IMG/VR virus record: IMGVR_UViG_2645727604_000006
Direction: 5' to 3' (one strand)
Source: a virus
Lineage: Duplodnaviria; Heunggongvirae; Uroviricota; Caudoviricetes
DNA length: 46,540 nt
Part shown: positions 5,739 through 25,113 of the stretch, in pieces
Layout of the letters: each line of letters starts with the position of its first letter
Numbering within the stretch: position 1 is the stretch's first letter
Translations under genes and position numbers: made by a program
The notes under the pieces: generated by a model
What the model was told of the DNA's origin: nothing
What the model saw: only the letters and a program-made list of their open reading frames with translations
Database searches by the model: none

Positions 5739-5750
5739 GGAGCCTGATAA

Positions 5751-6125: not shown

Positions 6126-6505
6126 CGATTATCGCTACACAGACCGGCGAACTGTCCGATGGTCTGGTTTTTAACGGCACCATTCATAAAAACTTTGAGC
6201 TGCGTCTGCCGGTCATGCGTGATAACGGGCAGGCACTGGAAGAAACTGAAGAACGCTTTCAGACAGTGGACGGCTTCGCGGCGGATTATTACTACCGCTG
6301 TGCGGTAATGGCGGCAACGCTGGTCCGTCTGGGGGATATTCCGCAGGAAGAACTGACGGCGGAGCTGTTGCACGACAACATGACGCCGGAAGATTTTAAT
6401 ATTCTGCTGGCATCACGCAACGTCCTGAAGGTAAAGCGGAGCGGCGGGAATCCCGGCTCGCCGGACTCCGGCTCGCAGTCCTTATCCTCGGGCGCTACGG
6501 AATAA
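6122..6505 (+). CDS. tail assembly chaperone (Mu gp41/Y-like)
   Basis: 127-aa acidic protein between the tube and tape measure genes, the canonical chaperone position. Confidence 0.55.
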   Translation: MTIIATQTGELSDGLVFNGTIHKNFELRLPVMRDNGQALEETEERFQTVDGFAADYYYRCAVMAATLVRLGDIPQEELTAELLHDNMTPEDFNILLASRNVLKVKRSGGNPGSPDSGSQSLSSGATE

Positions 6506-6678
6506 CCGAAGAACAAATCATGACCATGAGCCGTCCCGAGCTGGACGGCTGGCTTGCCGCCGTTGACAGGCTGAACGGCGGCGGCTCAGGAAGAAAGGAC
6601 ACCTCACAGACCACCCGCCAGTCATTTAAATCCCTCAGAAAGAAACGCAGAAAAGGTAAACAGAAAAATGGCCGGTAA
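6400..6678 (+). other. -1 frame extension ORF downstream of the chaperone gene; candidate programmed-frameshift product
   Basis: The -1 frame is open from 6400 to the TAA at 6676-6678, overlaps the chaperone 3' end by 106 nt, and ends just as the tape measure gene starts (6668). It encodes ...ITEEQIMTMSRPELDGWLAAVDRLNGGGSGRKDTSQTTRQSFKSLRKKRRKGKQKNGR. The slip site is not identified. Confidence 0.35.
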
Positions 6679-8950: not shown

Positions 8951-10299
8951 TGGGCTGGGCTGAAAACCTGCAAAACGCCTCCTTTCGTGGCGTGCAGTTT
9001 GATGTACTGAACACGGATGAACAAATCAGCCGCGACCATGCGGTCTATGAATACCCGTTTGTTGACGGGGCGGATTTGCACGACCTCGGGCGCAAGGCGC
9101 GACCGTTCCGCATGACGGCGTTCCTGTGGGGGGAGTATTACGAATATAAACTCGAAAAGCTGATCGCCGCCCTGGACGAAGGCGGCGATGGTGAGCTGAT
9201 TCACCCGGTTTACGGCTCCGTACCGTCGGTGATTGTGACCGGCTACAGCATTCGCCATGACGCAGAAAGCCCGGACAGCTGCACCATCGACATGAGCTTT
9301 CTGGAGAACCGCACCGGTAGCGCGTTGTTCAGCACCCCGTTACCGGAGCTGTTCGCGCAACAGTTGTTTGATGAACTGGACACTTTACAGGCGCGGTTAA
9401 GTGATTTTTTTGATGCCGTTGCTGCACCTTTAAATACCGTTAACAGCATGATTAAAAAAGCCCAGACAGTGCGTGCCACACTGGTGAATACCCTGCTGTC
9501 TTTCAAAAGTGATTTTGTCTCCACTGTCGATAATATCGTGTCACTGGCAGGCGAACCCGGAAAATTTATCAATGAACTGGCAGAGGTGCTGGAAATCCAC
9601 ACATCAGATGTCGGGCAACCGGTGCCGGTTCTGCAACGTGTTGATTCTGCCACCCGGACCGGGTTGGCAGGAGAGACGACCGTCGCCAGTTCTGCGACAG
9701 TGATGAACTGCTGGAATAAGGTCATCACTGATATGGATGAATTTGTTGCGCTGCCTGTTGCCCTGGTCAGTGGCGATAAAGTACCGGAGGTGGTACTTCC
9801 TGCGGATGCCTCGCCAGACGATGTGCAGGATGTGAAAGCAGTTTACGCAACACAGGCCGCATCTGAACTGGCCAGTGTTGCAATGGCGATACTGGTTGAT
9901 GATGCGCAGTCAGAACAGCTTATACCGGCGGATATCGGGCGACTGGTCGGGGATGTGCGCACCCGCTTACAGGCTGCCATCACGCTGTTCCGTGAACGCT
10001 ATGAAGGCGAACGCGAACGGATAACCGAAACCGCATCACCGCTGGGGCTGATGTACCCGGAAATCATTCAGAGCATGAAAAACGTGGCGGCATCCGTGCA
10101 GGATGTCGGCCTGCTGGTTCTGTCACGCCGCCCACCGCTGACGCAGAAACAGGTGCAGGCGGACAGCTGTCTGCTGTTGCTGGCGTGGCAGTGGTACGGT
10201 GATTACAGTCGTGCGGCAGAACTGCAACGTCTGAACCCGCAGCTGCGTGACCCGAACAACATAACCGCCGGGGTGGTCATTAATGCCTACGCAAAATAA
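8950..10299 (+). CDS. Mu gpN-like DNA circulation protein
   Basis: 449-aa ORF directly after the tape measure gene (ATG overlaps its stop); the N-terminus matches the Mu N family pattern. Confidence 0.65.
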   Translation: MGWAENLQNASFRGVQFDVLNTDEQISRDHAVYEYPFVDGADLHDLGRKARPFRMTAFLWGEYYEYKLEKLIAALDEGGDGELIHPVYGSVPSVIVTGYSIRHDAESPDSCTIDMSFLENRTGSALFSTPLPELFAQQLFDELDTLQARLSDFFDAVAAPLNTVNSMIKKAQTVRATLVNTLLSFKSDFVSTVDNIVSLAGEPGKFINELAEVLEIHTSDVGQPVPVLQRVDSATRTGLAGETTVASSATVMNCWNKVITDMDEFVALPVALVSGDKVPEVVLPADASPDDVQDVKAVYATQAASELASVAMAILVDDAQSEQLIPADIGRLVGDVRTRLQAAITLFRERYEGERERITETASPLGLMYPEIIQSMKNVAASVQDVGLLVLSRRPPLTQKQVQADSCLLLLAWQWYGDYSRAAELQRLNPQLRDPNNITAGVVINAYAK

Positions 10300-11494
10300 C
10301 GAAGACAAAATCAGCCTGGTCATTGCCGGAAGGTCGCATTCTGACTGGAACAGTTATCGTATTGACAGCGATTTCCTGAAAGCTGCCGACGGCTGGCAGC
10401 TTCAGCTGGGGCTGCCTGAAAAGGTGTTCCCGGCGGATATCGTCCGGGGCGCACAAATCCGGTTGCAGGTGGGAGACGAAACGGTGCTCAGTGGGCGCAT
10501 AGACAGCGTGCGCCGCAGTGTATCCCGTCAGAGCTGCACGCTGACCCTGTCCGGGCGTGATGATGCCGCCATCCTGGTGGACTGTGCCGCGCCAGTGTTC
10601 AGCGCCAACCAGCTGACGCTGGACGAGGTCATCGACAGGATTGTCAGACCGCTGGGGATACAGCGCATCCGTATTCAGGCGTCCGGTGTGTCACGTAATG
10701 ACAAAGTCGTTATTGAGCCGGGGATGCGTGCGTGGGATGCACTGGCCAAAGCTGCCGCCGGTCGCGGCTTATGGCCGTGGTTTGAGCCTGACGGGACGCT
10801 GGTTGTGGGTGGCCCTGACTACACCACCACGCCGGTGGATACGCTGATTCTGAAGCTGAACGGCACCGGGAACAACGTGATGGAGCTGGACGATACCCGG
10901 TCCATTAACGGCTGTTTCTCCGAACTTACTGTGCTGGCCCAGAGCCACGCCCGCCGCGCAGACAGCAAGAAACAGGTGGCCGTGGTGCCGCTGGATATCT
11001 GGAACGAGGACGGCAGCGTGCGCACATTGTCCGGGCAGGACAGCGGTAATACGGACAGTGGCCAGACAGGCATTCATAACATGAAAGCCGTTGCCACCGA
11101 CCCCACCGTGGATTATTACCGCCCGCAGATAATCACCCAGGGCGACACCAGCAATCTGGAGCAAGTGAACTGGCGCGCAAAAAAAATGATGAGTGATGCC
11201 CGCCTGTCGGGGCTGGATATCGTCGCGCTGGTTGCAGGTCATCGCACGGCAGATGGTGTTCTGTGGCAGCCCGGCCAGCGGGTGCGGATTGTCAGCGAAC
11301 TCCACGGCATTGATGCCATCTTTTTCCTGATGGGGCGTGAGTTCAGCGGAGGCCGGAACGGGCAGACAACCCGGCTCCGCTTTAAGGAGGACGGCGTGTG
11401 GATACCTGATGCCTTCCCGCGCGAGAAGAAACGCCATCACCGCAGGGGCAAAAAGAAAAAAGAGGTCGCCATTGTTAAGGTCTGGGAGAAATGA
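10283..11494 (+). CDS. baseplate hub / tail protein (Mu gpP-like, P2 gpD-like)
   Basis: 403-aa ORF in the Mu P position. Confidence 0.65.
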   Translation: MPTQNNEDKISLVIAGRSHSDWNSYRIDSDFLKAADGWQLQLGLPEKVFPADIVRGAQIRLQVGDETVLSGRIDSVRRSVSRQSCTLTLSGRDDAAILVDCAAPVFSANQLTLDEVIDRIVRPLGIQRIRIQASGVSRNDKVVIEPGMRAWDALAKAAAGRGLWPWFEPDGTLVVGGPDYTTTPVDTLILKLNGTGNNVMELDDTRSINGCFSELTVLAQSHARRADSKKQVAVVPLDIWNEDGSVRTLSGQDSGNTDSGQTGIHNMKAVATDPTVDYYRPQIITQGDTSNLEQVNWRAKKMMSDARLSGLDIVALVAGHRTADGVLWQPGQRVRIVSELHGIDAIFFLMGREFSGGRNGQTTRLRFKEDGVWIPDAFPREKKRHHRRGKKKKEVAIVKVWEK

Positions 11495-12144
11495 TGTGGG
11501 ACAAAGTTAATCAGCGCGTACAGCAGGCACTGGCCGCCGTTCGCCAGGCATTCAGGGTGGTGACCGGTACGGTGGACAGTTCGACCAAAGTACAGCTGCT
11601 TCAGCTTAACGGGCTGGCAGGCGAACAGCTGGACGGTGCGGAGTATTTTCAGCATTACGGCCTCACCACATCCCCGCCGCCCGGCTCAATGGGTATTGCC
11701 GTTCCGCTGAACGGCAATACCTCCCATACTGTCGTGGTGGCCACAGAGCACGGCGCATATCGTCTGACGGAACTGAAACCCGGGGAAGTGGCCCTGTATA
11801 CCGATGAAGGCGCGAAAATCGTACTGAAGCGCGGACGGGTTATTGAAACCGAATGTGACGTTTATCGCGTGAAATGCAAACGCTACGAGGTTGAGGCAGA
11901 GGAGAACGCCACATTCACGACACCGTTACTGACAGCCAGTGACAGGCTGACGGTGGAAGGCAAAATCACCGGCAACGGTGGCATGGCCATCAGTGGGGGC
12001 AAGGGATACACTGCCACCTTTGAAGGCAATATCAACCATGTGGGTGGAGTGATTACCTCCGTTGACGTCACCATTAATGGCGTTAAAATCGGAACGCACA
12101 AACATCCAACCCCACACGGCATGTCTGACACGCCGGTTAATTAA
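11491..12144 (+). CDS. baseplate assembly/spike protein (Mu gp45-like, P2 gpV-like)
   Basis: 217-aa ORF with a glycine-rich beta region, in the Mu Q position. Confidence 0.6.
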   Translation: MMWDKVNQRVQQALAAVRQAFRVVTGTVDSSTKVQLLQLNGLAGEQLDGAEYFQHYGLTTSPPPGSMGIAVPLNGNTSHTVVVATEHGAYRLTELKPGEVALYTDEGAKIVLKRGRVIETECDVYRVKCKRYEVEAEENATFTTPLLTASDRLTVEGKITGNGGMAISGGKGYTATFEGNINHVGGVITSVDVTINGVKIGTHKHPTPHGMSDTPVN

Positions 12145-12197
12145 GTGCTGAACACCCTCACCTGATTCTGACCTGTCCATGCTGCCAGACTGGCGGC

Positions 12198-12548
12198 ATG
12201 GACCAGACGATTTCACCTGCAACCGGCGACTACGAACGCCGTCGGATTTATACCCTTCATAACGCGGTTTATCTGCGACTGGCGACGCCGCTTGGCAGTT
12301 ACTGGGCGGATGCGTCGCTGGGGTCACGCCTGCACGAGCTGAAGCGGGAAAAAGACGTTTCCCGTGTTCATAAGCTTGCGGCGCAGTATGCCAGCCAGGC
12401 ACTTCAGCCCCTGCTCGATGACGGGCGGGCAAAATCCATTACCGTTGACACAAAACCGGGGCAGCGCGGCTGGTTGTTGCTGTTAATCACCGTCACGGAT
12501 AACGCGGGCACACCGCAGACGTTTGAACACCCTGTGAGGATTATGTAA
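12198..12548 (+). CDS. baseplate protein (Mu gp46-like, P2 gpW-like)
   Basis: 116-aa ORF between the spike and J-like baseplate genes. Confidence 0.55.
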   Translation: MDQTISPATGDYERRRIYTLHNAVYLRLATPLGSYWADASLGSRLHELKREKDVSRVHKLAAQYASQALQPLLDDGRAKSITVDTKPGQRGWLLLLITVTDNAGTPQTFEHPVRIM

Positions 12549-13627
12549 TGCCGTTTCCTGTTCCGGGCGTTGCTGAAAACACAGAACGCCAGCTACGTGA
12601 TATCGCTAACGCCCTGCCGGGCGAAACCATCGACACCGGCGCTGACAGCGATTACCGCATTCGTGCAAATGCCGTATCCGGCGTGGCGGACGGACTGTAT
12701 ATGCATCAGGGGTGGATACTCCGTCAGGTGTTTCCTGATACGGCAGACCCTGAATATCTGGAGTTGCACTGCCGCACGCGCAATGTTTTTCGTAAAAAAG
12801 CAACGGCCTCATCCGGTCCGGCAGTGATTACCGGCACACCCGGTAAAACGCTGCCAGCCGGTGCGGAAATTCGTGGTGAAGGTGTCAGCGTGGCCACCGC
12901 AGCAGACTGCACCGTCGGTGATGAAGGCAGCGCAGAGGTGACGGTAAAAAGCACTGCCACGGGTGCACAGACGAATGCATCCACGACTCAGACGGCAACG
13001 CTGGTCAGCCCACCTGAAGGCATCAACAGCACGGTGACGATTAAATCCCTGACCGGCGGAACGGACAGGGAAAGCGACGCCGACCTGCTGGCGCGTTATC
13101 TGGATATTCTGCGCAGGCCGCCCGCTGGCGGTAATAAATATGATTACAAACGCTGGGCGCTGGAAGTGGATGGCGTTACGTCTGCGTATGTGGAGCCGTT
13201 GCGTCGTGGACTGGGGACGGTTGATGTGGCCATTACGTCAGCCAATGACCTCCCTTCGCAGGAACTGATTAATGCCGTGCTGGCACATATTGAGGAAGTC
13301 CGCCCGGTGACAGCGAAGGACACGATGGTGCTGGCCCCGACGAAAAAAGCCGTTGATTTCGTTGTCCGGGTAAAAACCAGTGGTCTTACTGTTGAACAGA
13401 TAAAACCACAGATAACTGAAGTTATCACGGATTTTATGAACCGGCTGGAGCCGGGGCAGGAATTAATTATTTCACAACTGGAAACTCAGATTTCATTAAT
13501 TTCTGGCGTCAGTGACCGGCGAATTATTATGCCGTCAGATAATGTAAAAGCAGTTGTCAATGAATCCACATGGGAGTGGCTGCGTCCGGGGAGTATTGAT
13601 ATCCAGCCATTTCCCCGGGAGAGTTAA
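12548..13627 (+). CDS. baseplate J-like protein (Mu gp47-like)
   Basis: 359-aa ORF whose ATG overlaps the previous stop; typical baseplate wedge size and position. Confidence 0.7.
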   Translation: MPFPVPGVAENTERQLRDIANALPGETIDTGADSDYRIRANAVSGVADGLYMHQGWILRQVFPDTADPEYLELHCRTRNVFRKKATASSGPAVITGTPGKTLPAGAEIRGEGVSVATAADCTVGDEGSAEVTVKSTATGAQTNASTTQTATLVSPPEGINSTVTIKSLTGGTDRESDADLLARYLDILRRPPAGGNKYDYKRWALEVDGVTSAYVEPLRRGLGTVDVAITSANDLPSQELINAVLAHIEEVRPVTAKDTMVLAPTKKAVDFVVRVKTSGLTVEQIKPQITEVITDFMNRLEPGQELIISQLETQISLISGVSDRRIIMPSDNVKAVVNESTWEWLRPGSIDIQPFPRES

Positions 13628-13630
13628 TAC

Positions 13631-14203
13631 ATGAATACGGTTGATTTATTTCGTGCCATGTTACCACCGGTCAGCTATGACCCGAACGGGAAATATATTT
13701 CAGCAGAACTGAACGCAGAAGCAGCCATTATGGATGAAGTAAAAGCGTCAGCTGCACGAGTGCTTGCATCTGTCACACCATTTTACGCATCCATGACGCT
13801 GTCTGACTGGGAACGAGTGTATGGAGTAATACCCCGCGACGGTGCCACACAGCAGGAACGCCGAGAAAATATTCTTATAAAGATGGCTGCAACTGGTGGG
13901 TTATCTATCCCTTATTTTAAACAACTTGCAGCCAGCCTCGGGTACACCATAACAATTACTGAACTTCATCCATTCAGAGCGGGGATAAACCGATGTGGTG
14001 ATCGTCTCTATATAACAGATGCCCGATGGATTTGGCAGGTTAATGTCACAGGAAGCAGAACGCCAGCCTACAGATTCAGAACCGGAGTATCTGCTGCCGG
14101 GGAGCCGTTACTTTCCTTTGGTGCCCCTGTACTGGAAGAAACATTTAAAGACCTTAAACCCGCTTTTACTTATTGCCATTTCACATATAAGGAGGAGCAG
14201 TAA
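13631..14203 (+). CDS. tail protein (Mu gp48-like, P2 gpI-like)
   Basis: 190-aa ORF between the baseplate J gene and the tail fibre gene. Confidence 0.6.
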
Positions 14204-15027
14204 TGCAAAATCTGATGCCCCCGATAAATACACCGGATCAATTGTTTCATGATGGTGACCCCACTCAGGGGATAGAAGGAACCCTCGTGACTGCTGGTTA
14301 TTTAAACAATCAGCAGGGGGCAACCCGTGATTTACAGCAGGAACTCCTTAATGTTCTTGGTGGTGCACATATTCAACCTGACCCCAAAAAAACGGATCAG
14401 CTACTTACCGCGCTTCGCGCGTTGCTGTTAAGCCGCAAAAATCCGTTTGGCGATATCAAATCGGACGGCACAGTACCAACGGCTCTCGAAAACCTTGGTT
14501 TGGGAGAAGGTGCTCCAGCTATTGGCGTTCCGTTCTTCTGGCCGTCCGCAGCAATGCCAGATACCGTAATCGATAGCTGGTCCAGCATGGTGTTTTTGAA
14601 GTTCAACGGCGCGAAATTCTCTGCCACTGATTACCCTGTGCTGGCGAAAGTGTTTCCGGCGCTGGCATTACCTGACGCACGCGGTGATTTCATTCGTATC
14701 TGGGATGACGGGCGCGGGATTGATGTCGGACGTACCCTACTTTCAGGGCAATCACACACAATTATGGATCATGCACACAATATGGAATTGTGGACGGGGG
14801 ACGGGCTTGCCGCAGGAAGTGCACGGGAAGGAGTAAACCCAGGAATACTGGCTACATATGGTGACGGGGGAATAGTTAAAACGGACGAACCCGGTCTTAA
14901 GGTGCCTTCCTCACTACGAGCTCTTAGCTCTCGTAGTGTTAAACGTTATGGTGAAATTAGTGGACATGTAGGTACAGAAACCCGTCCACGAAATATTGCA
15001 TTTAACTTTCTGGTGAGGGCTAAATAA
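14203..15027 (+). CDS. tail fibre protein: constant N-terminal part fused to the currently expressed variable part
   Basis: 274-aa ORF. The crossover site at 14484-14509 lies inside the gene (about codon 94-102). The C-terminus [16 protein letters not shown] resembles tail-fibre tips. Confidence 0.75.
14484..14509 (+). repeat. left crossover site of the invertible segment (gix/cix/hix-like)
   Basis: TCTCGAAAACCTTGGTTTGGGAGAAG. The core TTGGTTTGGGAGAAG (14495-14509) recurs as its exact reverse complement at 16379-16393. Confidence 0.65.
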
Positions 15028-15620
15028 TGAAACCTGTTTTTGATGAAAATGGGCTGGCTACAGTGCCGGGTGATATGCGTTGTTTTTATTATGATGCAGT
15101 AACGTCTGAATATACGGGCTGGTCTGATGAATATATTAATACTGGCGTAAGTATGCCCGCCTGTTCCACTGGTATTGACCCGGGCGAATACATTCCGGGG
15201 AAAGTGGCAGTATTTACGGGTAAGGGATGGCGCCATGAAGAAGACCACCGCAATGAGACTGTTTACTCAATCGAAAATGGCGCAGCTGTTACAGTGGATT
15301 ATATCGGTGCCATCAAAGACGGTTATGTCACGCTTTCACCGTTAACGCCATACGATAAATGGGATGGTGAGAAATGGGTGACGGATACCGAGGCACAGCA
15401 TAGCGCCGCACTAGACGCGGCAGAAGTAAAGCGCCAGTCGCTGATTGATGCTGCAATGGCTTCCATCAGTCTGATTCAGCTGAAATTACGAGCCGGGCGG
15501 AAGCTGACGCAGGCAGAAACCACCCGACTTAACGCTGTGCTGGATTACATTGACGCGGTGGAGGCAACAGATACCAGCACCGCGCCTGATGTCATCTGGC
15601 CTGAACTGCCGGAGGCGTAG
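15027..15620 (+). CDS. tail fibre assembly chaperone (Tfa, U-like)
   Basis: 197-aa ORF immediately after the fibre gene. Its C-terminus (LDYIDAVEATDTSTAPDVIWPELPEA) is paralogous to that of the minus-strand Tfa. Confidence 0.75.
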   Translation: MKPVFDENGLATVPGDMRCFYYDAVTSEYTGWSDEYINTGVSMPACSTGIDPGEYIPGKVAVFTGKGWRHEEDHRNETVYSIENGAAVTVDYIGAIKDGYVTLSPLTPYDKWDGEKWVTDTEAQHSAALDAAEVKRQSLIDAAMASISLIQLKLRAGRKLTQAETTRLNAVLDYIDAVEATDTSTAPDVIWPELPEA

Positions 15621-16032
15621 GCCATTCAATATCTGGCGCACCGGAAGTATCGACCAGTTCCAGTGCGTCCAGATAATCCAGCCACAAATTATATTGCGCC
15701 AGTTCCTCACCTTTCAGGCGACCAATCGCCGCTTTACCAGGCCATTGCTTACTGTTTATGTATTCGTTGACCTGATTAATCAATTGCTGCTTTTCCAGTT
15801 CGGCTGCGGCAATTTGTTCCTCATGAGTTGGCGGTGGAATATCAATCCATGCAGGCATTCCGTCGATGACACCTCTGTATTTTCCTTCTGGTGCTTCCTT
15901 CATAAATTCGGCGGCAACAGTGTCGTCAATTTCGATTCCATCATCGGGCCATTCACCGGATTCCTGATAAGCGATTTTAAGCTCCACAGGGAAAAACGCA
16001 TTTTTATCGGCACTGAAAATATATTTCTGCAT
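15592..16032 (-). CDS. alternative tail fibre assembly chaperone (U'-like)
   Basis: 146-aa ORF ending LDYLDALELVDTSGAPDIEWPTPPAVQAR, convergent with the + Tfa and overlapping it by 29 bp. Confidence 0.7.
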   Translation of the reverse strand: MQKYIFSADKNAFFPVELKIAYQESGEWPDDGIEIDDTVAAEFMKEAPEGKYRGVIDGMPAWIDIPPPTHEEQIAAAELEKQQLINQVNEYINSKQWPGKAAIGRLKGEELAQYNLWLDYLDALELVDTSGAPDIEWPTPPAVQAR

Positions 16033-16034
16033 TT

Positions 16035-16433
16035 CTACCGTCCTATCGAAATATAACTGAATCTGTATTGCTGTGAGATATCACTGGTTGCCACACGCCA
16101 CGCTGAATTACTGATATGTTCAAAATTTACAGACAAAACCTGCGGGGCAGGATTCGACGGGTCTGACTGAACGGCATCAGACATAACACTGACTGAAACC
16201 ATCGGCTGATTAGGGAATGGTATAGGGAAGTGTCCACTGATAAAGCGGGTCGTGTTTCCTGAAAAAGTGCCAAACTGAACAATATATCCACCTGGTAGCC
16301 TGAACCATCCCGAACCAGAAGCGAATGCTCCCATATCCGGTATCTGATTATCTCCTGTGCCCACATCCCTTTTCGCCGCTTCTCCCAAACCAACGTTTAA
16401 GAAAATGCAGAGATTACGGCTAACTGGCATCAT
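16035..16433 (-). CDS. alternative tail-fibre variable segment (S'-like); silent in this orientation
   Basis: Minus-strand ORF running through the right crossover site. It encodes NVGLGEAAKRD at the site, matching [10 protein letters not shown] in the + fibre gene. No constant N-terminal part is attached in this orientation. Confidence 0.6.
   Translation of the reverse strand: MMPVSRNLCIFLNVGLGEAAKRDVGTGDNQIPDMGAFASGSGWFRLPGGYIVQFGTFSGNTTRFISGHFPIPFPNQPMVSVSVMSDAVQSDPSNPAPQVLSVNFEHISNSAWRVATSDISQQYRFSYISIGR
16379..16405 (+). repeat. right crossover site of the invertible segment, inverted
   Basis: CTTCTCCCAAACCAACGTTTAAGAAAA, whose reverse complement contains TTGGTTTGGGAGAAG. Confidence 0.65.
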
Positions 16434-16460
16434 CTCCGGTTTTTATTCAGGGGGATGCTC

Positions 16461-16556
16461 ATGCTTATTGGCTATGTACGCGCATCAACAAATGACCAGG
16501 ACACCGATTTACAACGCAATGCGTTGAACTGTGCAGGATATGAGCTGATTTTTTGA
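16461..16556 (+). pseudogene. truncated Din-family serine DNA invertase (Gin/Pin/Cin-like); only the first 31 codons remain
   Basis: Encodes MLIGYVRASTNDQDTDLQRNALNCAGYELIF then TGA, which matches the conserved N-terminus of Gin/Pin/Cin invertases (MLIGYVRVSTNDQ...). Similarity stops near codon 31; downstream sequence is unrelated. Confidence 0.75.
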
Positions 16557-16592
16557 GGGTAAATCATCAGCATGAGACTAATAATTTAGCGT

Positions 16593-16652
16593 CCAATTCT
16601 GGGCTTTTTGGTTGCGCTCTCTCCGCCCAGAATTGTGCGCCAATTAGCCCAG
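16593..16652. promoter_or_regulatory. palindromic repeat cluster in the junction region; candidate operator or hairpin
   Basis: CCAATTCTGGGC (16593-16604) with an 11-bp perfect inverted partner GCCCAGAATTG (16625-16635), 20-bp spacer. A third partial copy CCAATTAGCCCAG at 16640-16652. Confidence 0.3.
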
Positions 16653-17253
16653 AAAAAAACGCGAAGTTACAAACCGTTTGTCGCAACAGCTGGTGGTCAG
16701 TGTCGCTGCACACCTGTTGTTACGGCATGAATGCAGATTACCAAATCACCTGGCTGTAAGTAACCACAGAGAACTTTACCTGACTGTGGGGGGCGAGTTG
16801 TGCAGGAACTTAACCGCTGGTTTCGTGACGGAAGAGGACTTTATGTTCATGTTATTCGTTGGGAGCCAGAAACACAGCGCGTTATCTATCTTCGCAAAGA
16901 CTACCCGCATGAGTGCTTTAGTCCTTTGTGGAAATTCAGGCGTGATTTTGTTGAGTGTGAAGGACCACCAGCATATTGATTCTGCAATTCCGGGACGTTA
17001 CACTGTTCAGGCACCTTATAAAGCGGGTGCCGGGATTGGCGTCCTGAAATTGTCAACGGCGATGTATGACGCGCCAGCGTCTTTTTTATCGTCCGCATTT
17101 GCTCACATCCAGATTATGGTGGGCTGGGCGGGGGCACCGAAAGGTGCGCCGGTCTCCGTTGACGCCGGTTACGCCAACCCCGTCCAGTTCACCACCAGTG
17201 AAATTGGCGTTTCCGGTGGTGGAAGTTTTTCACTGTCAACGGAGGCTGCCATC

Positions 17254-17811
17254 ATGGCTACGATCCAAGCCCTCACTCAACCTGAAATCACCATTGACAA
17301 CGGCCAGGCCGTTACCACTTCTTTGGCTGTTGCCAACTTCTTCTCCAAGCGTCACGACGATGTGCTGAAAAAGATCCGCACTCTGGATTGTTCCCCTGAG
17401 TTTTGTGCCCGCAATTTTGCGGAGACATCGATTTCGGTAAATCAACCGAACGGTGGTACACGCAAGCTCCCTTGCTATCAAATCACACGAGACGGTTTTG
17501 CGTTTCTTGCTATGGGTTTCACGGGTAAACGTGCTGCCCGGTTCAAAGAGGCATACATCAATGCCTTTAACCAGATGGAAAAACTGCTTTCAAAGCCATC
17601 CACGCTGAGCGATGCCGCAGATAACGCCAGCGTGCTTTACTCCCACCTGTCGGTAATCCACAAGGTCTGGCTGCAGCAGCTTTATCCTATGTTGGCAAAA
17701 GCTGAATCTCCGCTGGCTGTTAGCTTATATGATTATATTAATGATGCTTCGGCGCTGGCCTGCCTCATAAATTTGTCGCTGAACCCTTCAGAGGTAAGGG
17801 GGCGCAAATGA
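17254..17811 (+). CDS. Rha-family phage regulatory protein
   Basis: The N-terminus MATIQALTQPEITIDNGQAVTTSLAVANFFSKRHDDVLKKIR fits the Rha pattern. GGAGG at 17241-17245 lies 8 nt before the ATG. The frame is open much further upstream (track ORF from 16678), but that part does not look protein-like. Confidence 0.6.
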   Translation: MATIQALTQPEITIDNGQAVTTSLAVANFFSKRHDDVLKKIRTLDCSPEFCARNFAETSISVNQPNGGTRKLPCYQITRDGFAFLAMGFTGKRAARFKEAYINAFNQMEKLLSKPSTLSDAADNASVLYSHLSVIHKVWLQQLYPMLAKAESPLAVSLYDYINDASALACLINLSLNPSEVRGRK

Positions 17812-18032
17812 TCCGGAATATTTTCAAACGGTTTACCAATCAGACTTTCCGTTGTCCTCGTCCGGGTCAGTGGTACACCACACCTGCAGGGCATGTTCTA
17901 CGTGTTAGCCTGGTTGACCGTGAATGTCAGAAGGTGATTTGTGAACCGCTGGGCCGTAATTACCGCGTCAGTATGCCGCTTATAGCCTTTCGCTCCGGAA
18001 AAAACATGAAGCATCTCGGAGGTGCTGCATGA
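17808..18032 (+). CDS. hypothetical small phage protein
   Basis: 74-aa ORF translationally coupled to both neighbours (ATGA overlaps). Confidence 0.35.
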   Translation: MIRNIFKRFTNQTFRCPRPGQWYTTPAGHVLRVSLVDRECQKVICEPLGRNYRVSMPLIAFRSGKNMKHLGGAA

Positions 18033-18847
18033 GTATGGAGCTGATGGTTAAAGCGATGAAAATTCGAGTGGGTAATCCATTGCGAAAACTGGTTCTGATC
18101 AAGCTGGCTGATAATGCCAGCGATCAGGGGGAGTGCTGGCCCAGCTACCAGCATATTGCTGACCAGTGCGAGATTAGCAAACGTTCTGTGATGAATCATA
18201 TTGCGGCCCTTTGTGAGTCCGGGCTGGTAAAAAAAGTCACCCGGAAAGGTGAAAAAGGTAACTCAAGTAATATCTATCTCCTTCATCTGGATGGTGCAGG
18301 AGATTCACTAGGGGGTAGTGCAAATAATTCACTATCTGGCGCAGCAAATTCACCAGGTAGTGCAGGAGTTGCACCAGGGGGTAGTGCAGGAGATTCACCC
18401 AGAACCAGTCACTCTTTTGAACCAGTCAAAGAACCAGTCAATGAACCAATAGCTGTTGGTGCATCAGTTGATGAGTCTGTGCGAGTTCGTTCAAACCGAC
18501 CGGAATACTCTCCGGAGTTTGAGCAGGCATGGCTGGCATATCCCAAACGTGCTGGTGGCAATTCAAAATCTGCAGCCTTCAAAGCCTGGAAAGCCCGTTT
18601 GAATGAGGGGGTAAACCCCGAAACCATGCTGGAAGGTGTGAAACGCTACGCGGGCTGGGTATCTGCGATGGGTAACAGCGGCACACAATTTGTGAAACAG
18701 GCTGTCACGTTCTTTGGTCCGGATCGTCATTTCGAAGAATCCTGGGAAGTTCCTGCGGTATCTGCAGCCAGACGTGAGGACCCGTACTTCAAAGCCAGTT
18801 ACGACAACGTGGACTACAGCCAGATCCCGGCAGGATTCAGGGGGTGA
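18029..18847 (+). CDS. putative replication initiator / winged-helix DNA-binding protein with an internal repeat-encoded linker
   Basis: The N-terminus (LRKLVLIKLADNASDQGECWPSYQHIADQCEISKRSVMNHIAALCESGLVKK) looks like a wHTH. A low-complexity linker is encoded by DNA repeats. The C-terminal domain contains AWLAYPKR. The architecture is analogous to lambda O with ori iterons inside the gene. Confidence 0.45.
   Translation: MSMELMVKAMKIRVGNPLRKLVLIKLADNASDQGECWPSYQHIADQCEISKRSVMNHIAALCESGLVKKVTRKGEKGNSSNIYLLHLDGAGDSLGGSANNSLSGAANSPGSAGVAPGGSAGDSPRTSHSFEPVKEPVNEPIAVGASVDESVRVRSNRPEYSPEFEQAWLAYPKRAGGNSKSAAFKAWKARLNEGVNPETMLEGVKRYAGWVSAMGNSGTQFVKQAVTFFGPDRHFEESWEVPAVSAARREDPYFKASYDNVDYSQIPAGFRG
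18293..18440 (+). repeat. iteron-like direct repeats inside the initiator gene; candidate origin
   Basis: GGTGCAGGAGATTCAC at 18293-18308 and 18383-18398. GTAGTGCA three times. ATTCAC four times. GAACCAGTCA at 18402, 18419 and 18431. Confidence 0.4.
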
Positions 18848-18849
18848 TC

Positions 18850-19338
18850 ATGAGTCTTTTGAATGAAGTTCAGAAATACATTGAAGCCCATCCGGGGTGT
18901 ACTTCCGGAGACATTGCGGATGCTTTTGCAGGTTACTCACGGCAGCGCGTTCTGCAGTATGCAAGCAAGTTACGTCAGAGTGGGCGTGTGGCTCACCGTT
19001 GTGAAGGAGATACACGCAGACATTTCCCGCGCCTGACTGAGAGAGCGCAGGAGCTGGAACCACAACCAGTTCGTGAAACCAGACCTGTGCGCAATTTCTA
19101 TGTCGGCACTAACGACCCGCGGGTGATTTTGTGCCTGACCCGCCAGGCGGAAGAACTGGAGTCAAGGGGCTTATACCGTCGTGCTGCAACCGTGTGGATG
19201 GCGGCATTCCGTGAAAGCCACTCCCAGCCAGAACGAAACAATTTTCTGGCACGTCGTGAGCGGTGCTTACGGAAAAGCAGCAAGCGCGCTGCATCGGGTG
19301 AAGAGTGGTATCTGTCAGGGAATTACGTGGGGGCTTAA
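18850..19338 (+). CDS. PerC-like (Pch-like) transcriptional regulator with an N-terminal wHTH-like region
   Basis: The C-terminal motif ELESRGLYRRAATVWMAAF...RRERCLRK resembles the PerC family signature (ELESKGLWRRAA.RWL) as recalled. AGGGGG precedes the ATG at 18850. Confidence 0.45.
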   Translation: MSLLNEVQKYIEAHPGCTSGDIADAFAGYSRQRVLQYASKLRQSGRVAHRCEGDTRRHFPRLTERAQELEPQPVRETRPVRNFYVGTNDPRVILCLTRQAEELESRGLYRRAATVWMAAFRESHSQPERNNFLARRERCLRKSSKRAASGEEWYLSGNYVGA

Positions 19339-19991
19339 TGAGTAATAAATATTGCCGGGCGCTGGTGGAACTGCGGAACAAACCAGCCCATGAACTGAAG
19401 GAAGTGGGCGATCAGTGGCGCACGCCGGATAACATTTTCTGGGGAATTAACACCCTGTTTGGCCCGTTTGTCCTGGATCTGTTTACTGACGGTGATAACG
19501 CCAAATGTACCGCGTATTACACGGCGGAAGACAACGCGCTGGCGCATGACTGGTCAGAACGTCTTGCGGAGCTTAAAGGTGCTGCCTTTGGTAATCCCCC
19601 ATACAGCCGCGCCAGTCAGCATGAGGGGCAATACATCACCGGCATGCGTTACATCATGAAACATGCCAGTGCCATGCGTGATAAAGGCGGGCGCTATGTT
19701 TTCCTGATCAAAGCTGCCACCTGCGAAGTGTGGTGGCCGGAAGATGCAGATCATATTGCTTTTATTCGCGGGCGTATTGGTTTTGAACTGCCTGCCTGGT
19801 TTATCCCGAAAGATGAGAAGCAGGTGCCGACAGGCGCTTTCTTCGCTGGTGCTATTGCTGTTTTCGACAAGACCTGGAAGGGACCGGCAATCAGCTACAT
19901 CGGGCGCGATGAACTTGAGGCATGTGGTGAGGCGTTTCTGGCGCAGGTTCGCCAGCAGGCAGAAAAACTGGTCAGGGAGATGGCGGCATGA
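19338..19991 (+). CDS. phage N6-adenine DNA methyltransferase (phage Dam-like)
   Basis: Catalytic motif FGNPPY; about 218 aa; nin-region position. The ATG at 19338 overlaps the upstream TAA. Confidence 0.75.
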   Translation: MSNKYCRALVELRNKPAHELKEVGDQWRTPDNIFWGINTLFGPFVLDLFTDGDNAKCTAYYTAEDNALAHDWSERLAELKGAAFGNPPYSRASQHEGQYITGMRYIMKHASAMRDKGGRYVFLIKAATCEVWWPEDADHIAFIRGRIGFELPAWFIPKDEKQVPTGAFFAGAIAVFDKTWKGPAISYIGRDELEACGEAFLAQVRQQAEKLVREMAA

Positions 19992-20314
19992 CGACGTTAA
20001 CTCAATGCCAGCAGCAGGTGCTGGATATGCTGATTTCTTATCAGAAAGAACGTGGCTTCCCGCCAACCAATCAGGAGGTGGCAACCATGCTGGGATACCG
20101 TTCAGTGAATGCAGCGGTGGAGCATCTTCGCGCACTGGAGAAAAAAGGCGTCATCACGATAAAGCGTGGCGTGGCCCGGGGGATCACGCTTCATACCGCG
20201 GTGAAGGACGACGACAGCGAGGCGGTCGGGATTATCCGCTCACTGCTTGCCGGTGAGGAAAACGCAAGGCTGCGTGCAACCCACTGGTTACATGAGAGAG
20301 GCTTGAAAGCATGA
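19988..20314 (+). CDS. LexA-like DNA-binding domain protein lacking the S24 peptidase domain
   Basis: 108 aa. The N-terminus LTQCQQQVLDMLISYQKERGFPPTNQEVATMLGYRSVNAAVEHLRALEKKGVI resembles the LexA N-terminal wHTH. No Ser/Lys peptidase domain follows. Confidence 0.55.
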   Translation: MTTLTQCQQQVLDMLISYQKERGFPPTNQEVATMLGYRSVNAAVEHLRALEKKGVITIKRGVARGITLHTAVKDDDSEAVGIIRSLLAGEENARLRATHWLHERGLKA

Positions 20315-20700
20315 AGCTGATCCTGCCTTTTCCGCCCAGCGTGAACACGTACTGGCGACACCCCAACAAAGGGGCGTTTGCTGGTAAGAGCCTGATAAGC
20401 TCGGCGGGGCGAAAATTCCAGAGCGCGGCGTGCGCAGCAATAGTTGAGCAGTTACGTCGTCTGCCGAAACCAACGTCGGCACCTGCTTCAGTGGAGATCG
20501 TGTTGTTTCCTCCGGATAACCGGATCCGCGATCTGGACAACTATAACAAGGCGCTGTTTGACGCCCTGACCCATGCGGGTGTGTGGGAAGACGACAGTCA
20601 GGTGAAAAGAATGCTGGTGGAGTGGGGACCGGTTATCCCGAAAGGGAAGGTCGAGATCACTATCAGTAAGTACGAGAAAACGGCGGGTGCAGCCGCCTGA
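20311..20700 (+). CDS. rusA: Holliday junction resolvase RusA
   Basis: 129 aa with LPFPPSVNTYW and DLDNYNKALFDALTHAGVWEDDSQV, the classic RusA signature. Confidence 0.9.
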   Translation: MKLILPFPPSVNTYWRHPNKGAFAGKSLISSAGRKFQSAACAAIVEQLRRLPKPTSAPASVEIVLFPPDNRIRDLDNYNKALFDALTHAGVWEDDSQVKRMLVEWGPVIPKGKVEITISKYEKTAGAAA

Positions 20701-20719
20701 TCAAGAGGAGAAACGAAGT

Positions 20720-21529
20720 ATGAATAATCTGATGGTCATTGATGGTATTGAAGTTCGTCGTGATGCTTATGGGCGTTACAGCCTGAACGATCTGCATCGC
20801 GCAGCAGTAGCATCTGGTGCAAATGCCAGAACCAAGGAGCCGGGAAAGTTTCTTTCCAGCCAACAAACTGTTGAGCTTGTTCATGAATTGACCAACACCC
20901 AGAATTTGGGTGTTGACCCGGTGAGTGTGATTCATGGGGGAAATGAACGGGGAACGTATGTCTGCAAGGAACTGGTGTATGCCTATGCAATGTGGATCAG
21001 CCCGTCATTCCATCTGAAGGTGATCCGTACTTTCGATATGGTAACCAGCGCACCGGAAAAATTATCCGGACAGGCTGCTGACAAGATGCAGGCTGGCGTG
21101 ATCCTGCTGGACTTTATGCGCCGGGAGTTAAACCTGTCTAACTCTTCAGTGCTTGGTGCCTGTCAGAAACTCCAGGAGGCTGTTGGCTTACCGAATCTGG
21201 CACCGCGCTATGCCATTGATGCTCCTGCTGATGCACACGATGGCTCAAGTCGCCCGACACTGTCACTGAGTGCACTGCTGAAACAGTATGGTATACGCCT
21301 GACGGCTAATCAGGCATATCACCAGATGGTGAAACTGGGGATCGTCGAGCAGCGCGAACGATACAGCCGTACCGCGATTAACAACATCAAAAAATTCTGG
21401 TCGCTGACAGCGAAAGGCTGCATGTTCGGCAAGAACATCACCAGTCCCGCAAATCCGCGCGAGACGCAGCCGCATTTCTTCGAATCCCGATTCCCTGAGC
21501 TGTTAAAGCTGCTCGATACCGTTCATTGA
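20720..21529 (+). CDS. KilA-N domain protein (antirepressor-like)
   Basis: The KilA-N core GTYVCKELVYAYAMWISPSFHLKVI is present. GAGGAG lies upstream of the ATG at 20720. Confidence 0.7.
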   Translation: MNNLMVIDGIEVRRDAYGRYSLNDLHRAAVASGANARTKEPGKFLSSQQTVELVHELTNTQNLGVDPVSVIHGGNERGTYVCKELVYAYAMWISPSFHLKVIRTFDMVTSAPEKLSGQAADKMQAGVILLDFMRRELNLSNSSVLGACQKLQEAVGLPNLAPRYAIDAPADAHDGSSRPTLSLSALLKQYGIRLTANQAYHQMVKLGIVEQRERYSRTAINNIKKFWSLTAKGCMFGKNITSPANPRETQPHFFESRFPELLKLLDTVH

Positions 21530-21530: not shown

Positions 21531-22526
21531 GTGACCGTGAGAGCACTACTGACCCCTGAAATTGCCCCGCGTATGGGGATCGTATTGTTCAGGCCAGGTT
21601 CAGAGCTGATGCCCCTGTTTATGCAGGGGCGTGTCCTGCTGGAGCCTGAGCCGGAGCGTTATTCATCTTTCGCCAGTGGTGCCGTTCCGGCGGCATCACA
21701 ACCGCTGGCGGATGATCCTGCCGTTCGGGCCGTATTCCGCAATGAGGCAGTGATCCGTCGTGCTGGTGGCGTGGAATGTCTTGAAAGCTGGTTACTTCGT
21801 GAAAAAGGCTGCCAGTGGCCTCATTCCGACTGGCACAGCGAGAACATGACCACAATGCGACACGCTCCGGGTGCAATCCGTCTGTGCTGGCACTGCGATA
21901 ACCAGCTGCGCGATCAGTTCACGGAACGGCTGGAATCAATGGCAACGGATAACTGTGCCCGCTGGGTGTTGTCTGTTGTGCGTCGGGATCTCGGTTTTGA
22001 TGACAGTCACGTTGTGACAATGCCGGAACTGTGCTGGTGGCTGATTCGTAATGATCTGGCGGATGCCTTACCGGAAAGTGCAGCCCGTAAGGCACTGAGA
22101 TTACCGAAGCCTGTTGTGCCGTCTGTTACCCGGGAAAGTGACCTTGTGCCTTCGGTTCCTGCCACCAGCATCATCCAGGATAAGGCGAAAAAGGTGCTGG
22201 CGCTGAAAGTGGATCCGGAGTCGCCGGAGTCTTTTATGTTACGCCCAAAACGTCGCCGCTGGGTTAATGAAAAGTACACGCGCTGGGTTAAGACACAGCC
22301 GTGTGCATGTTGTGGAAAGCCCGCTGATGATCCCCACCACCTGATAGGTCACGGTCAGGGTGGAATGGGAACAAAAGCGCATGACCTTTTTGTGTTGCCT
22401 TTGTGCAGAAAGCATCACGACGAGCTGCATGCGGATACCGTGGCATTTGAAGAGAAGTATGGCTCCCAGCTGGAGCTGATATTTCGTTTTATCGATCGTG
22501 CGCTGGCAATTGGCGTGCTGGCCTGA
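21531..22526 (+). CDS. DUF968-like nin-region protein with a C-terminal HNH/zinc-finger-like motif
   Basis: [21 protein letters not shown]...[10 protein letters not shown], i.e. Cys/His clusters typical of DUF968/HNH-like proteins in lambdoid nin regions. GTG start. Confidence 0.55.
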
Positions 22527-22543
22527 TTTTGTGGAGAAAGTTG

Positions 22544-22909
22544 ATGCGTGATATTCAAATGGTTCTTGAACGTTGGGGGGCATGGGTGGCAAATAATCAC
22601 GAGGATGTCACCTGGTCGTCTATTGCTGCAGGATTTAAAGGACTAATCCCTTCAAAAGTAAAATCCCGCCCGCAATGTTGTGACGATGACGCGATGATCA
22701 TTTGTGGATGCATGGCTCGCCTGAAAAAGAACAACAGCGATTTGCACGATTTATTAGTGGATTATTATGTAGGTGGTATGACTTTTATGGCGCTTGCCCG
22801 TAAACATGGGCGTTCTGATTGCTGGGTTGGGCGTTTATTGCAAAAGGCTGAAGGTGTAGTTGATGGCATGTTAATGATGTTAGAAATTGAGCTAGAGATG
22901 GATCGTTAG
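22544..22909 (+). CDS. late-gene antiterminator Q (phage 82/21-type Q family)
   Basis: [26 protein letters not shown]...[19 protein letters not shown]...CWVGRLL resembles the Q82-type family. GGAGAAAG precedes the ATG at 22544. Confidence 0.7.
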
Positions 22910-22951: not shown

Positions 22952-22991
22952 GGGGAGTCGATTTATTCTCCCCATTTTATTTAATTTATTT
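22952..22991 (+). terminator. hairpin plus T-rich tract downstream of Q; candidate intrinsic terminator on the + strand
   Basis: GGGGAG (22952-22957) pairs with CTCCCC (22968-22973) around a 10-nt loop, followed by ATTTTATTTAATTTATTT. Confidence 0.35.
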
Positions 22992-23436
22992 AAGGTTTTA
23001 ATTCATCAAGACGTTGTTGGATAGTGTTTTTGCTTGCGTTGTCTGTTATAGACATTTGTTGTACTTGCCCCATTGCCATTTGAGTTTCCATCCACATATC
23101 GGCCCACACTTTTGTATCGTTATTAACTTGAGCGATAGTAAATCTGACTTTTGATACCGGGGTTGTTGAATAGGCATTGCCGATTAACATTTGTCCAAAA
23201 ACAGCAGAGCCGCCTTCCAGTTCTTTACCACATATAACACTGCTGTTATCCGCGTTGTAAATTATCAACCCTCTACTATTGCAGTAATTCACAAGGGCAT
23301 CTTTGACTTTATCTTTTGTCGTATTTTGATAAACCCCCTCAGGTTTTCCTGATTGAGTTTTCTTTATCAATGGTACGGAAGAAGTACAACCTGAAATGAT
23401 AGTTGCGCTAAGTAATAGTACAGTCATTTTATTCAT
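22990..23436 (-). CDS. lipoprotein of unknown function (reverse-oriented cargo gene)
   Basis: The N-terminus MNKMTVLLLSATIISGCTSS is a signal peptide with an LSGC-type lipobox. AT-rich compared with flanking phage genes. Opposite strand to the late operon. Confidence 0.6.
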   Translation of the reverse strand: MNKMTVLLLSATIISGCTSSVPLIKKTQSGKPEGVYQNTTKDKVKDALVNYCNSRGLIIYNADNSSVICGKELEGGSAVFGQMLIGNAYSTTPVSKVRFTIAQVNNDTKVWADMWMETQMAMGQVQQMSITDNASKNTIQQRLDELKP

Positions 23437-23491: not shown

Positions 23492-23586
23492 TAATCAACC
23501 GTTTACAATCGTAAAAAATCAAATATGCTGTTAAGAGTGGTTACTTCGCCACACAACTTAAACCCGCCGCTGAGCGGTTTTTTTGT
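23492..23586 (+). promoter_or_regulatory. candidate sigma70 promoter (TTTACA-N16-TATGCT) followed by a short hairpin and T-run; possible PR'/tR'-like unit
   Basis: -35 TTTACA at 23492-23497 and -10 TATGCT at 23514-23519. Hairpin CCGC-TGA-GCGG at 23567-23577 followed by TTTTTTT. The stem is weak (4-5 bp). Confidence 0.25.
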
Positions 23587-23682
23587 ACCTGTAAACCTGG
23601 TGCAGTACAGTAAACACGCTGGTGGTCGTGAATACTGACTTTTTATCTTGCTGGCTTTTTAGACAAGAGTTATTGGTATGTC

Positions 23683-23910
23683 ATGTTAACCAGAAGGGAA
23701 AAAGACATGCTAAAACAGCAAGATATGACAGAAACCGCCGCCGCAGTCCTTCATTTCTTACCTGCTGACAAGTGGGTAACGCCACGCATGATGACGAGAA
23801 CTACCGGAGTAAGCGAAGCCCGGTGCCAGTTAATACTGACTCAGTTAGTTCTGGCGGGTCTGGCGAAGGATAACGGCGGGTACGGGAATAAATTCAGACG
23901 CTGCCAGTAA
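23683..23910 (+). CDS. small putative winged-helix DNA-binding protein
   Basis: 75 aa (alternative ATG at 23707). AVLHFLPADKWVTPRMMTRTTGVSEARCQLILTQLVLAGLA is compatible with a small wHTH regulator of the PapI/FaeA type. Directly upstream of the methyltransferase gene. Confidence 0.35.
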   Translation: MLTRREKDMLKQQDMTETAAAVLHFLPADKWVTPRMMTRTTGVSEARCQLILTQLVLAGLAKDNGGYGNKFRRCQ

Positions 23911-24060: not shown

Positions 24061-25113
24061 ATGAAAAATACTGTAAAAATAAACAGTGTTGATTTAATCA
24101 ACGCTGATTGCCTGCATTTTATTCAGTCCCTGCCTGATGATTCCATTGACCTGATTGTTACCGATCCGCCGTACTTCAAGGTGAAACCCAACGGCTGGGA
24201 CAATCAGTGGAAAGGGGACGAAGATTACCTTAAGTGGCTGGACCACTGTCTGGCCCAGTTCTGGCGGGTGTTAAAACCTGCCGGAAGCCTTTACCTGTTC
24301 TGTGGGCATCGCCTGGCATCTGATATTGAGATCATGATGCGTGAACGTTTCAACGTGCTTAACCATATCATCTGGGCGAAGCCGTCCGGACGTTGGAATG
24401 GGTGTAATAAAGAAAGTCTGCGTGCATATTTTCCAGCCACAGAGCGCGTTCTGTTTGCTGAACATTACCAGGGGCCATATCGCGGCAAAAGTGACGGCTA
24501 TGCGGCAAAAGAAAGGGAACTCAAACAGCACATAATGGCACCGCTGATTTCGTATTTCAGGGATGCTCGTGCCGAACTGGGTATAACGGCAAAACAAATT
24601 GCCGAAGCCACAGGTAAGAAAAATATGGTTTCCCACTGGTTTGGTGCCAGTCAGTGGCAGTTGCCGAATGAGGCTGACTATCGGAAGTTACAGGCACTGT
24701 TTTCCCGTATAGCGGCAGAGAAGTTTCAGGAACAACAACTGGAACAACCACACCACCAGCTGGTGGCATCTTATGATTCACTGAATCGCAAATATTCTGA
24801 ATTGCTGGATGAGTTTAAATCTCTCCGGCGCTATTTCTCCGTATCAGTCTCCGTGCCTTATACCGATGTCTGGATGCATAAACCCGTTCAGTTCTACCCG
24901 GGTAAACATCCGTGTGAGAAACCTGCGGATATGCTCCGGCAAATAATCAATGCCAGTAGTCGACCTGGTGATCTGGTTGCTGATTTTTTTATGGGATCCG
25001 GTTCCACAATAAAAGCAGCAATGGCGCTGGGGCGTCGGGCCTTAGGTGTTGAGCTTGAGTCAGAGCGGTTTAACCAGACAGTGAAAGAGATAAACGAGCT
25101 GGTGGGGAAATAA
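24061..25113 (+). CDS. beta-class DNA N6-adenine (or N4-cytosine) methyltransferase, orphan
   Basis: Catalytic motif IV LIVTDPPYF near the N-terminus and SAM-binding motif I FFMGSGST near the C-terminus, the beta-class order. No adjacent endonuclease-like ORF. Confidence 0.8.
   Translation: MKNTVKINSVDLINADCLHFIQSLPDDSIDLIVTDPPYFKVKPNGWDNQWKGDEDYLKWLDHCLAQFWRVLKPAGSLYLFCGHRLASDIEIMMRERFNVLNHIIWAKPSGRWNGCNKESLRAYFPATERVLFAEHYQGPYRGKSDGYAAKERELKQHIMAPLISYFRDARAELGITAKQIAEATGKKNMVSHWFGASQWQLPNEADYRKLQALFSRIAAEKFQEQQLEQPHHQLVASYDSLNRKYSELLDEFKSLRRYFSVSVSVPYTDVWMHKPVQFYPGKHPCEKPADMLRQIINASSRPGDLVADFFMGSGSTIKAAMALGRRALGVELESERFNQTVKEINELVGK

Follow-up and report, generated by a model that had tools for sequence, protein, structure and literature searches.

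A prophage-encoded LexA DNA-binding domain with a two-helix tail in place of the autopeptidase: a possible uncleavable LexA surrogate of enterobacterial phages

The Bacillus phage GIL01 encodes gp6, a truncated LexA homologue that activates the late promoter P3 and has the palindrome GaCACAn-nTGTGaC as its binding site (PMC6182141). This palindrome is gp6's own and is located at about -43.5 (PMC6182141). In E. coli LexA, the DNA contacts are made by S39, N41, A42, E44, and E45 (PMC13416735, citing Knegtel 1995), and a further account of the N41 contact is given in PMC5999292. When S24 repressors are reduced to their N-terminal fragments, these can still repress as long as ClpX(P) does not remove them (PMC10584840). 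Here we describe a gene for a 108-residue protein, referred to as the LexA-like protein, in a 46,540-nucleotide stretch of tailed-phage DNA (Caudoviricetes; IMG/VR virus record IMGVR_UViG_2645727604_000006). The whole stretch is referred to as the window. The protein is composed of a LexA DNA-binding head and a two-helix tail, and its gene is located between the genes for a phage Dam protein and for RusA. We compare it with E. coli LexA and gp6, and weigh what such a protein may do for a prophage.

The head of the LexA-like protein is a LexA-type winged helix-turn-helix. Pfam LexA_DNA_bind (PF01726) matches residues 1-65 over its entire length (profile positions 1-65 of 65) with E 2.9e-19 and 69 bits, the cut-off being 23.7. 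E. coli LexA is found by BLASTP with 43% identity across 90 residues (E 1e-21), the LexA DNA-binding domain of PDB 1lea is matched with E 6.9e-16, and the top solved-structure relatives are all LexA chains. The AlphaFold2 model, for which 33 family members served as input, has a predicted local distance difference test (pLDDT) score of 82. Its head can be aligned with the LexA structures 1lea and 3jso with a root mean square deviation of about 1 Å over 68 residues, at roughly 50% identity. A preliminary description made from the same DNA had noted a resemblance to the LexA N-terminal domain and the lack of an S24 autopeptidase domain, and both observations hold. The S24 peptidase domain (PF00717) has no Pfam match in the 108-residue protein, whose chain stops at residue 108, and TIGR00498, the NCBIfam lexA equivalog, reaches 70.8 bits, which is under its cut-off of 110.95, with only positions 1-91 of its 203 being aligned. 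E. coli LexA possesses an S24 serine-protease/dimerisation domain with the catalytic residues Ser119/Lys156 and cleaves itself, whereas the phage protein lacks the domain and would hence lack the activity. We regard it as very likely that the LexA-like protein descends from LexA and acts as a sequence-specific DNA-binding regulator.

We then inspected the residues that contribute to DNA recognition. The recognition helix of the phage protein reads S39-V-N41-A42-A-V44-E45-H, in which four of the five LexA contact residues are kept and E44 is replaced by valine. Apart from the winged helix-turn-helix fold, the phage protein and E. coli LexA have in common S39, N41, A42, E45, and the RGI of the wing; they differ in that E44 and R28 of LexA are V44 and N28 in the phage protein. 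Among 33 relatives, S39, N41, K53, and the wing residues R64-G65-I66 are invariant, and A42 is present in 26. The preliminary description had allowed for kinship with a different winged-helix family devoid of LexA recognition residues; the residues found here, including the RGI wing, are those of LexA. Judged by these positions, most of what LexA needs to recognise a CTGT half-site is still present in the clade to which the window copy belongs, but the family does not copy LexA strictly. As the LexA recognition residues are kept and the autopeptidase is missing, it is plausible that the protein binds CTGT-type SOS half-sites without being subject to RecA-dependent inactivation.

The comparison with gp6 gives a different picture. 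gp6 has 66 residues and no tail, whereas the phage protein has a 39-residue C-terminal extension consisting of the linker and two helices. The recognition helix of gp6 is SHKTAHRYL, with K38 being essential, that of the phage protein is SVNAAVEHL, and that of LexA is SPNAAEEHL. gp6 binds a non-LexA palindrome, whereas the phage protein keeps the LexA recognition residues. BLASTP of gp6 against the phage protein yielded no alignment, and host LexA is the closer relative (43-50% identity). The lack of BLASTP similarity and the changed recognition helix of gp6 argue that gp6 and the enterobacterial family may have arisen by independent captures.

The C-terminal part of the protein has no counterpart in the preliminary description. 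An acidic linker connects the head to the two-helix tail, which occupies the place of the cleavage-site strand and the C-terminal domain of E. coli LexA. The tail is conserved among the 33 relatives (40-95% identity), all of which have A97 and L101; A93 is found in 31, and position 100 is aromatic in 32. On its own, the tail has no Pfam match and no structural match, and it is the signature of the family. The N-terminal halves of BlaI/MecI- and MntR/DtxR-type regulators likewise have a winged helix-turn-helix followed by helices, which form short helical dimerisation tails; the corresponding structural matches of the phage protein (2g9w, 1okr, and 6kta) are weak and involve the whole chain. 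The two-helix tail would serve as a dimerisation element in place of the LexA C-terminal domain.

The preliminary description had also stated that the protein lacks an Ala-Gly cleavage-site context, which needs to be corrected. Both BLASTP and HMMER align Ala88-Gly89 with the LexA cleavage site Ala84-Gly85 (LLAGEE versus VAAGEP). In the predicted structure, this pair is located in a helix-turn region. Across the family, alanine is found in 18 and glycine in 17 of the 33 relatives. The pair is thus retained in no more than about half of the relatives and is probably vestigial.

The region that harbors the gene is the delayed-early, 'nin'-type part of a lambdoid prophage. The start codon of the gene and the stop codon of the Dam gene share the sequence ATGA in a 4-nt overlap (seen in the sequence at 19985-19991), and its own stop codon shares another ATGA with the start codon of rusA, again overlapping by 4 nt. 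The ATG has a GGAG-type ribosome-binding site in front of it. The overlaps with both neighbours therefore place the gene in the early-right operon, and both the adjacency to rusA and the gene boundaries given in the preliminary description are exact according to the open reading frame list and the sequence. In contrast, lexA of E. coli is an autoregulated host gene. In relatives across genera, the phage gene has a constant position inside the rightward early operon, with the replication genes on one side and Q on the other. The usual order in E. coli, Cronobacter, and Salmonella is Dam, the LexA-like gene, RusA, an antirepressor-like gene (KilA-N or Rha/ANT), DUF968, and Q.

The gene is already known, being common and long annotated, and phage-encoded regulators made of the LexA domain only are a known kind. 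It is carried by 2233 of the 5426 complete E. coli genomes at 95-100% nucleotide identity, where it is annotated as 'LexA family transcriptional regulator/protein'. The 'LexA DNA binding domain protein' of phage mEp460 is 100% identical, and proteins of 95-100% identity are found in mEp460, SfV (orf42), SfII, cdtI, and Stx2c phages; the gene is also present in records of Ayreon, SfIV, Stx2a, Stx2k, and other phages. PHROG 362 ('transcriptional repressor') matches residues 1-107 with positions 1-105 of its 106-position profile, thus including the tail, at E 1.5e-59. Full-length relatives that are more diverged (40-65% identity) come from Salmonella, Citrobacter, Cronobacter, Klebsiella, Enterobacter, Atlantibacter, and Hafnia. 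A scan of viral contigs with the family alignment returned E. coli copies only, which are 99-100% identical. In a survey of Stx phages, the gene is only catalogued, as pham 237 with pfam01726 (PMC8136144). Our search of the accessible literature for a functional study of the enterobacterial family found none beyond catalogue mentions. The prophage regulator RgdR was considered as a possible parallel and discarded, as its source paper never mentions LexA. Many uncharacterised proteins of 140-350 residues have two tandem LexA_DNA_bind domains (P0131, P0149, P0152, P0153, P0156, P0159, and others), which may mimic a dimer of the LexA head within a single chain.

LexA boxes were scored on a matrix for which an informally compiled set of 26 E. 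coli LexA sites served as training data (training median 19.9 bits). On this matrix, the one strong canonical box of the window, located near the start of an N6_N4 DNA methylase gene in the late region downstream of Q, scores 22.3 bits. Dinucleotide shuffling of the window never gave such a score (200 shuffles, maximum 20.4, median 11.1). E. coli copies and Salmonella copies, whose flanks differ by 10-15%, are invariant in the box and in about 60 nt upstream of it. Most of the phage records listed with the methylase segment are also among the matches of the LexA-like gene. The box may be an operator of the LexA-like protein. In related phages, a box of 25-26.5 bits, TACTGTTTTTA(C/T)ATACAGTA, lies within the coding sequence of a cI-like XRE repressor at 25 of 80 viral loci, and 5 of the 80 have a box between rusA and the KilA-N gene. 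The latter arrangement suggests that the KilA-N/antirepressor-like gene following the LexA-like/rusA pair may be under SOS control in some relatives.

A further box is found in Klebsiella prophages, where dinI and a small open reading frame are followed by a 130-residue LexA-like gene with a 25-residue N-terminal extension (L083-L085, 7385-8393). Directly 5' of dinI are a 27-bit LexA box, TACTGTTTATTTATACAGTA, and a TTGAAC -35 element. From its layout, the Klebsiella LexA-like gene looks SOS-inducible and paired with dinI, a known SOS modulator. The association of LexA boxes with carriers of the gene is suggestive, the boxes having been scored in carriers only. In one of these Klebsiella loci (L083), a PARIS-like pair of AAA_15 and DUF4435 genes is located at 1574-3542.

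We tentatively favor the reading that the LexA-like protein is an uncleavable LexA surrogate, which is made after induction and represses SOS-box promoters anew. The analysis shows the fold, the lost domain, the kept recognition residues, the place in the operon, the conservation throughout the family, and the LexA boxes that occur along with the gene; which DNA the protein targets, how it oligomerises, in which direction it regulates, and how the phage benefits are what we infer in the following. The N-terminal domain of an enterobacterial lexA would have been captured, with the S24 domain being swapped for the two-helix tail. Being co-transcribed with the delayed-early (replication/nin) genes, the protein would be present only after infection or induction, and its appearance in an SOS-induced cell would coincide with host LexA already being cleaved. 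Two copies would sit on CTGT-type palindromes, i.e. LexA boxes, held together by the tail, by DNA-templated contacts between the N-terminal domains, or by both. RecA* would be unable to trigger self-cleavage of the surrogate because it has no S24 domain. Repression would be re-imposed at SOS-box promoters, namely the phage's own box in the methylase gene and the SOS-controlled antirepressor/KilA-N genes of relatives and of co-resident prophages, with the host SOS regulon as a possible further target.

In function, such a protein would be analogous to LexA(Ind-) mutants and to the LexA 1-84 fragment, which are likewise DNA-binding LexA species that RecA* cannot remove. The isolated N-terminal domain of E. 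coli LexA was reportedly found by Kim and Little in 1992 to bind operators cooperatively, and Neher et al. are said to have found in 2003 that the 1-84 fragment is degraded by ClpXP in E. coli and must be degraded. The mutants and the fragment are products of a host gene, whereas the phage protein represents a separately evolving gene family. Moreover, the 1-84 fragment ends in a tag recognised by ClpX, whereas the C-terminus of the phage protein is different and is predicted to be structured.

Several points weigh against the binding of SOS boxes by this protein, among them the informal compilation of the sites behind the box matrix. CTGT-N8-ACAG, the motif whose search the preliminary description had proposed, occurs at two sites in the window against an expectation of 0.54-0.75. 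This is no excess over chance, as 8 of 100 shuffles have as many. The other half-site spacings from N0 to N20 gave nothing above chance in the window either. The methylase box is within coding sequence, no convincing sigma-70 promoter was found 5' of it, and shared phage lineage alone may explain why box and gene occur together. In the Cronobacter relatives, no box of at least 14 bits is present within 8 kb. As for the residues, glutamate is found at position 44 in none of the 33 relatives, R28 is lost across the family, and E45 is kept in 17, with aspartate in another 7. The binding specificity may thus have shifted in this family, perhaps differently from one subfamily to another. Finally, gp6, the only characterised precedent of a phage protein consisting of the LexA domain only, is an activator with a site of its own (PMC6182141). 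This precedent and the substitutions at positions 44, 28, and 45 speak for a dedicated phage regulator, in which the LexA head is retargeted to a phage-specific palindrome and has no effect on host SOS boxes. Such a regulator would activate or repress a phage promoter, for example for late, Q, antirepressor, or methylase expression. The new dimerisation tail could alter the half-site spacing, and the gene is tightly set in a conserved module for phage regulation and DNA metabolism, both of which fit a dedicated regulator. However, the window clade keeps N41, A42, and E45, unlike gp6; the few intergenic regions of the module contain no conserved non-SOS palindrome, in line with the spacing scan; and canonical LexA boxes accompany the gene in several lineages. 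We consider a retargeted regulator of this kind the main rival, possible but somewhat less likely than the surrogate.

Competition with host LexA had been suggested in the preliminary description. As an antagonist or decoy, the protein would occupy SOS half-sites without effective repression, and SOS expression and prophage induction would be raised or prolonged. Its recognition residues are as in LexA, and a weakly dimerising domain could displace LexA, but occupying a box that overlaps a promoter itself represses. Besides, heterodimers cannot form through the LexA C-terminal domain, which the protein lacks, the gene would be expressed once LexA is already cleaved, and the association in Klebsiella with dinI, which encodes an inhibitor of the RecA co-protease, points to damping of SOS. 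We hold a decoy to be quite improbable. The non-inducible repressor of the preliminary description, understood as the immunity repressor that maintains the prophage, agrees with the label 'transcriptional repressor' borne by PHROG 362 and several phage records. However, related phages have a separate cI (HTH_3 plus Peptidase_S24) and cro about 3-4.5 kb upstream, the gene between Dam and rusA is translationally coupled to both in the rightward early operon, and its position is unchanged in prophages with different immunity regions. From the separate cI/cro and the early-operon position, it follows that the LexA-like protein is very probably not the immunity repressor. Least credible is a decaying, functionless fragment of a captured lexA. 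The vestigial Ala-Gly pair and occasional frameshifted database copies (P0024, P0034, and P0111) would agree with decay, yet the protein is conserved over its full length, tail included, down to about 40% identity in Escherichia, Salmonella, Citrobacter, Cronobacter, Klebsiella, Enterobacter, and Atlantibacter. Invariant positions are found in the winged helix-turn-helix and the tail alike, and a fragment without function would hardly be carried by 2233 complete E. coli genomes.

Coordinates of the gene, of the parts of its product, of its neighbours, and of the LexA boxes are collected in Table 1.

Table 1. Features of the LexA-like gene, its surroundings in the window, and LexA boxes of the window and of related loci (locus handles are given where positions refer to a relative)
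Feature	Position	Strand	Basis and remarks
LexA-DNA-binding-domain-only gene	19988..20314	+	108 aa; ATG at 19988, stop TGA 20312-20314 included; open reading frame list and sequence
Residues 1-69, LexA-type winged helix-turn-helix	19988..20194	+	Helices 6-22, 28-35, 40-52; wing strands 56-58, 66-68
Residues 70-77, acidic linker (TAVKDDDS)	20195..20218	+	pLDDT <50 at residues 71-75; length varies, with indels in the family alignment
Residues 78-103, two-helix tail	20219..20296	+	Helices 78-87 and 93-103 at pLDDT about 85; replaces the S24 domain
Replication protein (HTH_36/DnaD_N)	18029-18847		Pfam
PerC-like protein	18844-19338		Pfam
Phage Dam (PF05869)	19305..19991	+	Pfam E 1.3e-44; directly 5' of the LexA-like gene
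rusA	20311..20700	+	Pfam RusA E 9.5e-15; directly 3' of the LexA-like gene
KilA-N protein	20687-21529		Pfam
DUF968/HNH protein	21531-22526		Pfam
Antiterminator Q	22529-22909		Pfam
Candidate operator, strong canonical LexA box TACTGTAAAAATAAACAGTG	24069-24088		Codons 4-9 of the N6_N4 DNA methylase gene (24061-25113)
cI-internal LexA box	L001 4547-4566; L002 2853-2872		Related phages; corresponding region missing from the window
LexA box TACTGTATTTATGAACAGTG	L018 10789-10808		21.8 bits; spacer between rusA and KilA-N, a spacer missing from the window

Features were also noted in other parts of the window. The left third (1-16672) belongs to a different element, whose baseplate and tail-fibre genes are Mu/P2-like. 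This part also has two genes for tail-fibre assembly in opposite orientation (15027-15620 on the forward and 15592-16032 on the reverse strand), and of a DNA invertase just the first ~30 codons are present (about 16462-16553). This element meets the early region at about 16672, with int, cI, and cro not in between, and none of the complete E. coli genomes carries the junction at 80% coverage or more. Next to the junction, a long open reading frame at 16678-17811, which related records name 'Rha family protein', is an over-call. Within it lie a small DUF4222 open reading frame (16800-16979), the small RNA isrK (17011-17087, 62 bits), and the antisense RNA C4 (17112-17199, 81 bits). Only at 17254 does the true open reading frame with the Rha domain begin, and the whole represents a P1/Gifsy-like module of C4/isrK and antirepressor. 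The site at 16754 (CTGTAAGTAACCACAG), 5' of this module, was considered as a LexA box and rejected with less than 10 bits on the matrix, and no convincing sigma-70 promoter was found around 16400-17300. Downstream of Q, a moron at 22990-23436 on the reverse strand encodes a 148-residue lipoprotein-like product. Downstream of the moron, the window has a candidate late promoter of the form TTTACA-16-TATGCT as well as an intrinsic terminator (23502-23585 and 23589-23610). Beyond these, a CTGT-N14-ACAG palindrome precedes a 67-residue open reading frame (23707-23910), whose only match is a sub-threshold one to MarR_2 (E 0.045).

The features of this family that we consider worth carrying forward are the conserved tail, the LexA recognition residues, which are kept unlike in gp6, and the LexA boxes together with the dinI linkage. 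If the LexA-like protein served an operator of its own instead of SOS boxes, it would be one more small phage regulator and an ordinary finding. The idea of an uncleavable surrogate can be carried further, to the claim that such a protein is encoded by a very widespread family of enterobacterial prophages, which is present in ~40% of the complete E. coli genomes and counts Stx2c-, Stx2a-, and Stx2k-converting phages and Shigella serotype-converting phages among its members. During lytic growth, the protein would switch the host SOS regulon back off, and it would cross-repress the SOS-controlled antirepressors of co-resident prophages. We rate this broader claim as rather unlikely; if true, it would mean phage control of host mutagenesis, of the induction of competing prophages, and of the timing of the phage's own SOS-box genes. 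If the surrogate does bind SOS boxes, many lysogens of E. coli, Shigella, Salmonella, and Klebsiella would hold a RecA-proof second LexA that is made on prophage induction. It could shape the duration and mutagenicity of the SOS response, the co-induction of neighbouring prophages, including Stx prophages, and the timing of phage genes with LexA boxes. It would then be a natural counterpart to GIL01 gp6, and the LexA DNA-binding domain would have been captured by phages more than once, for opposite purposes.

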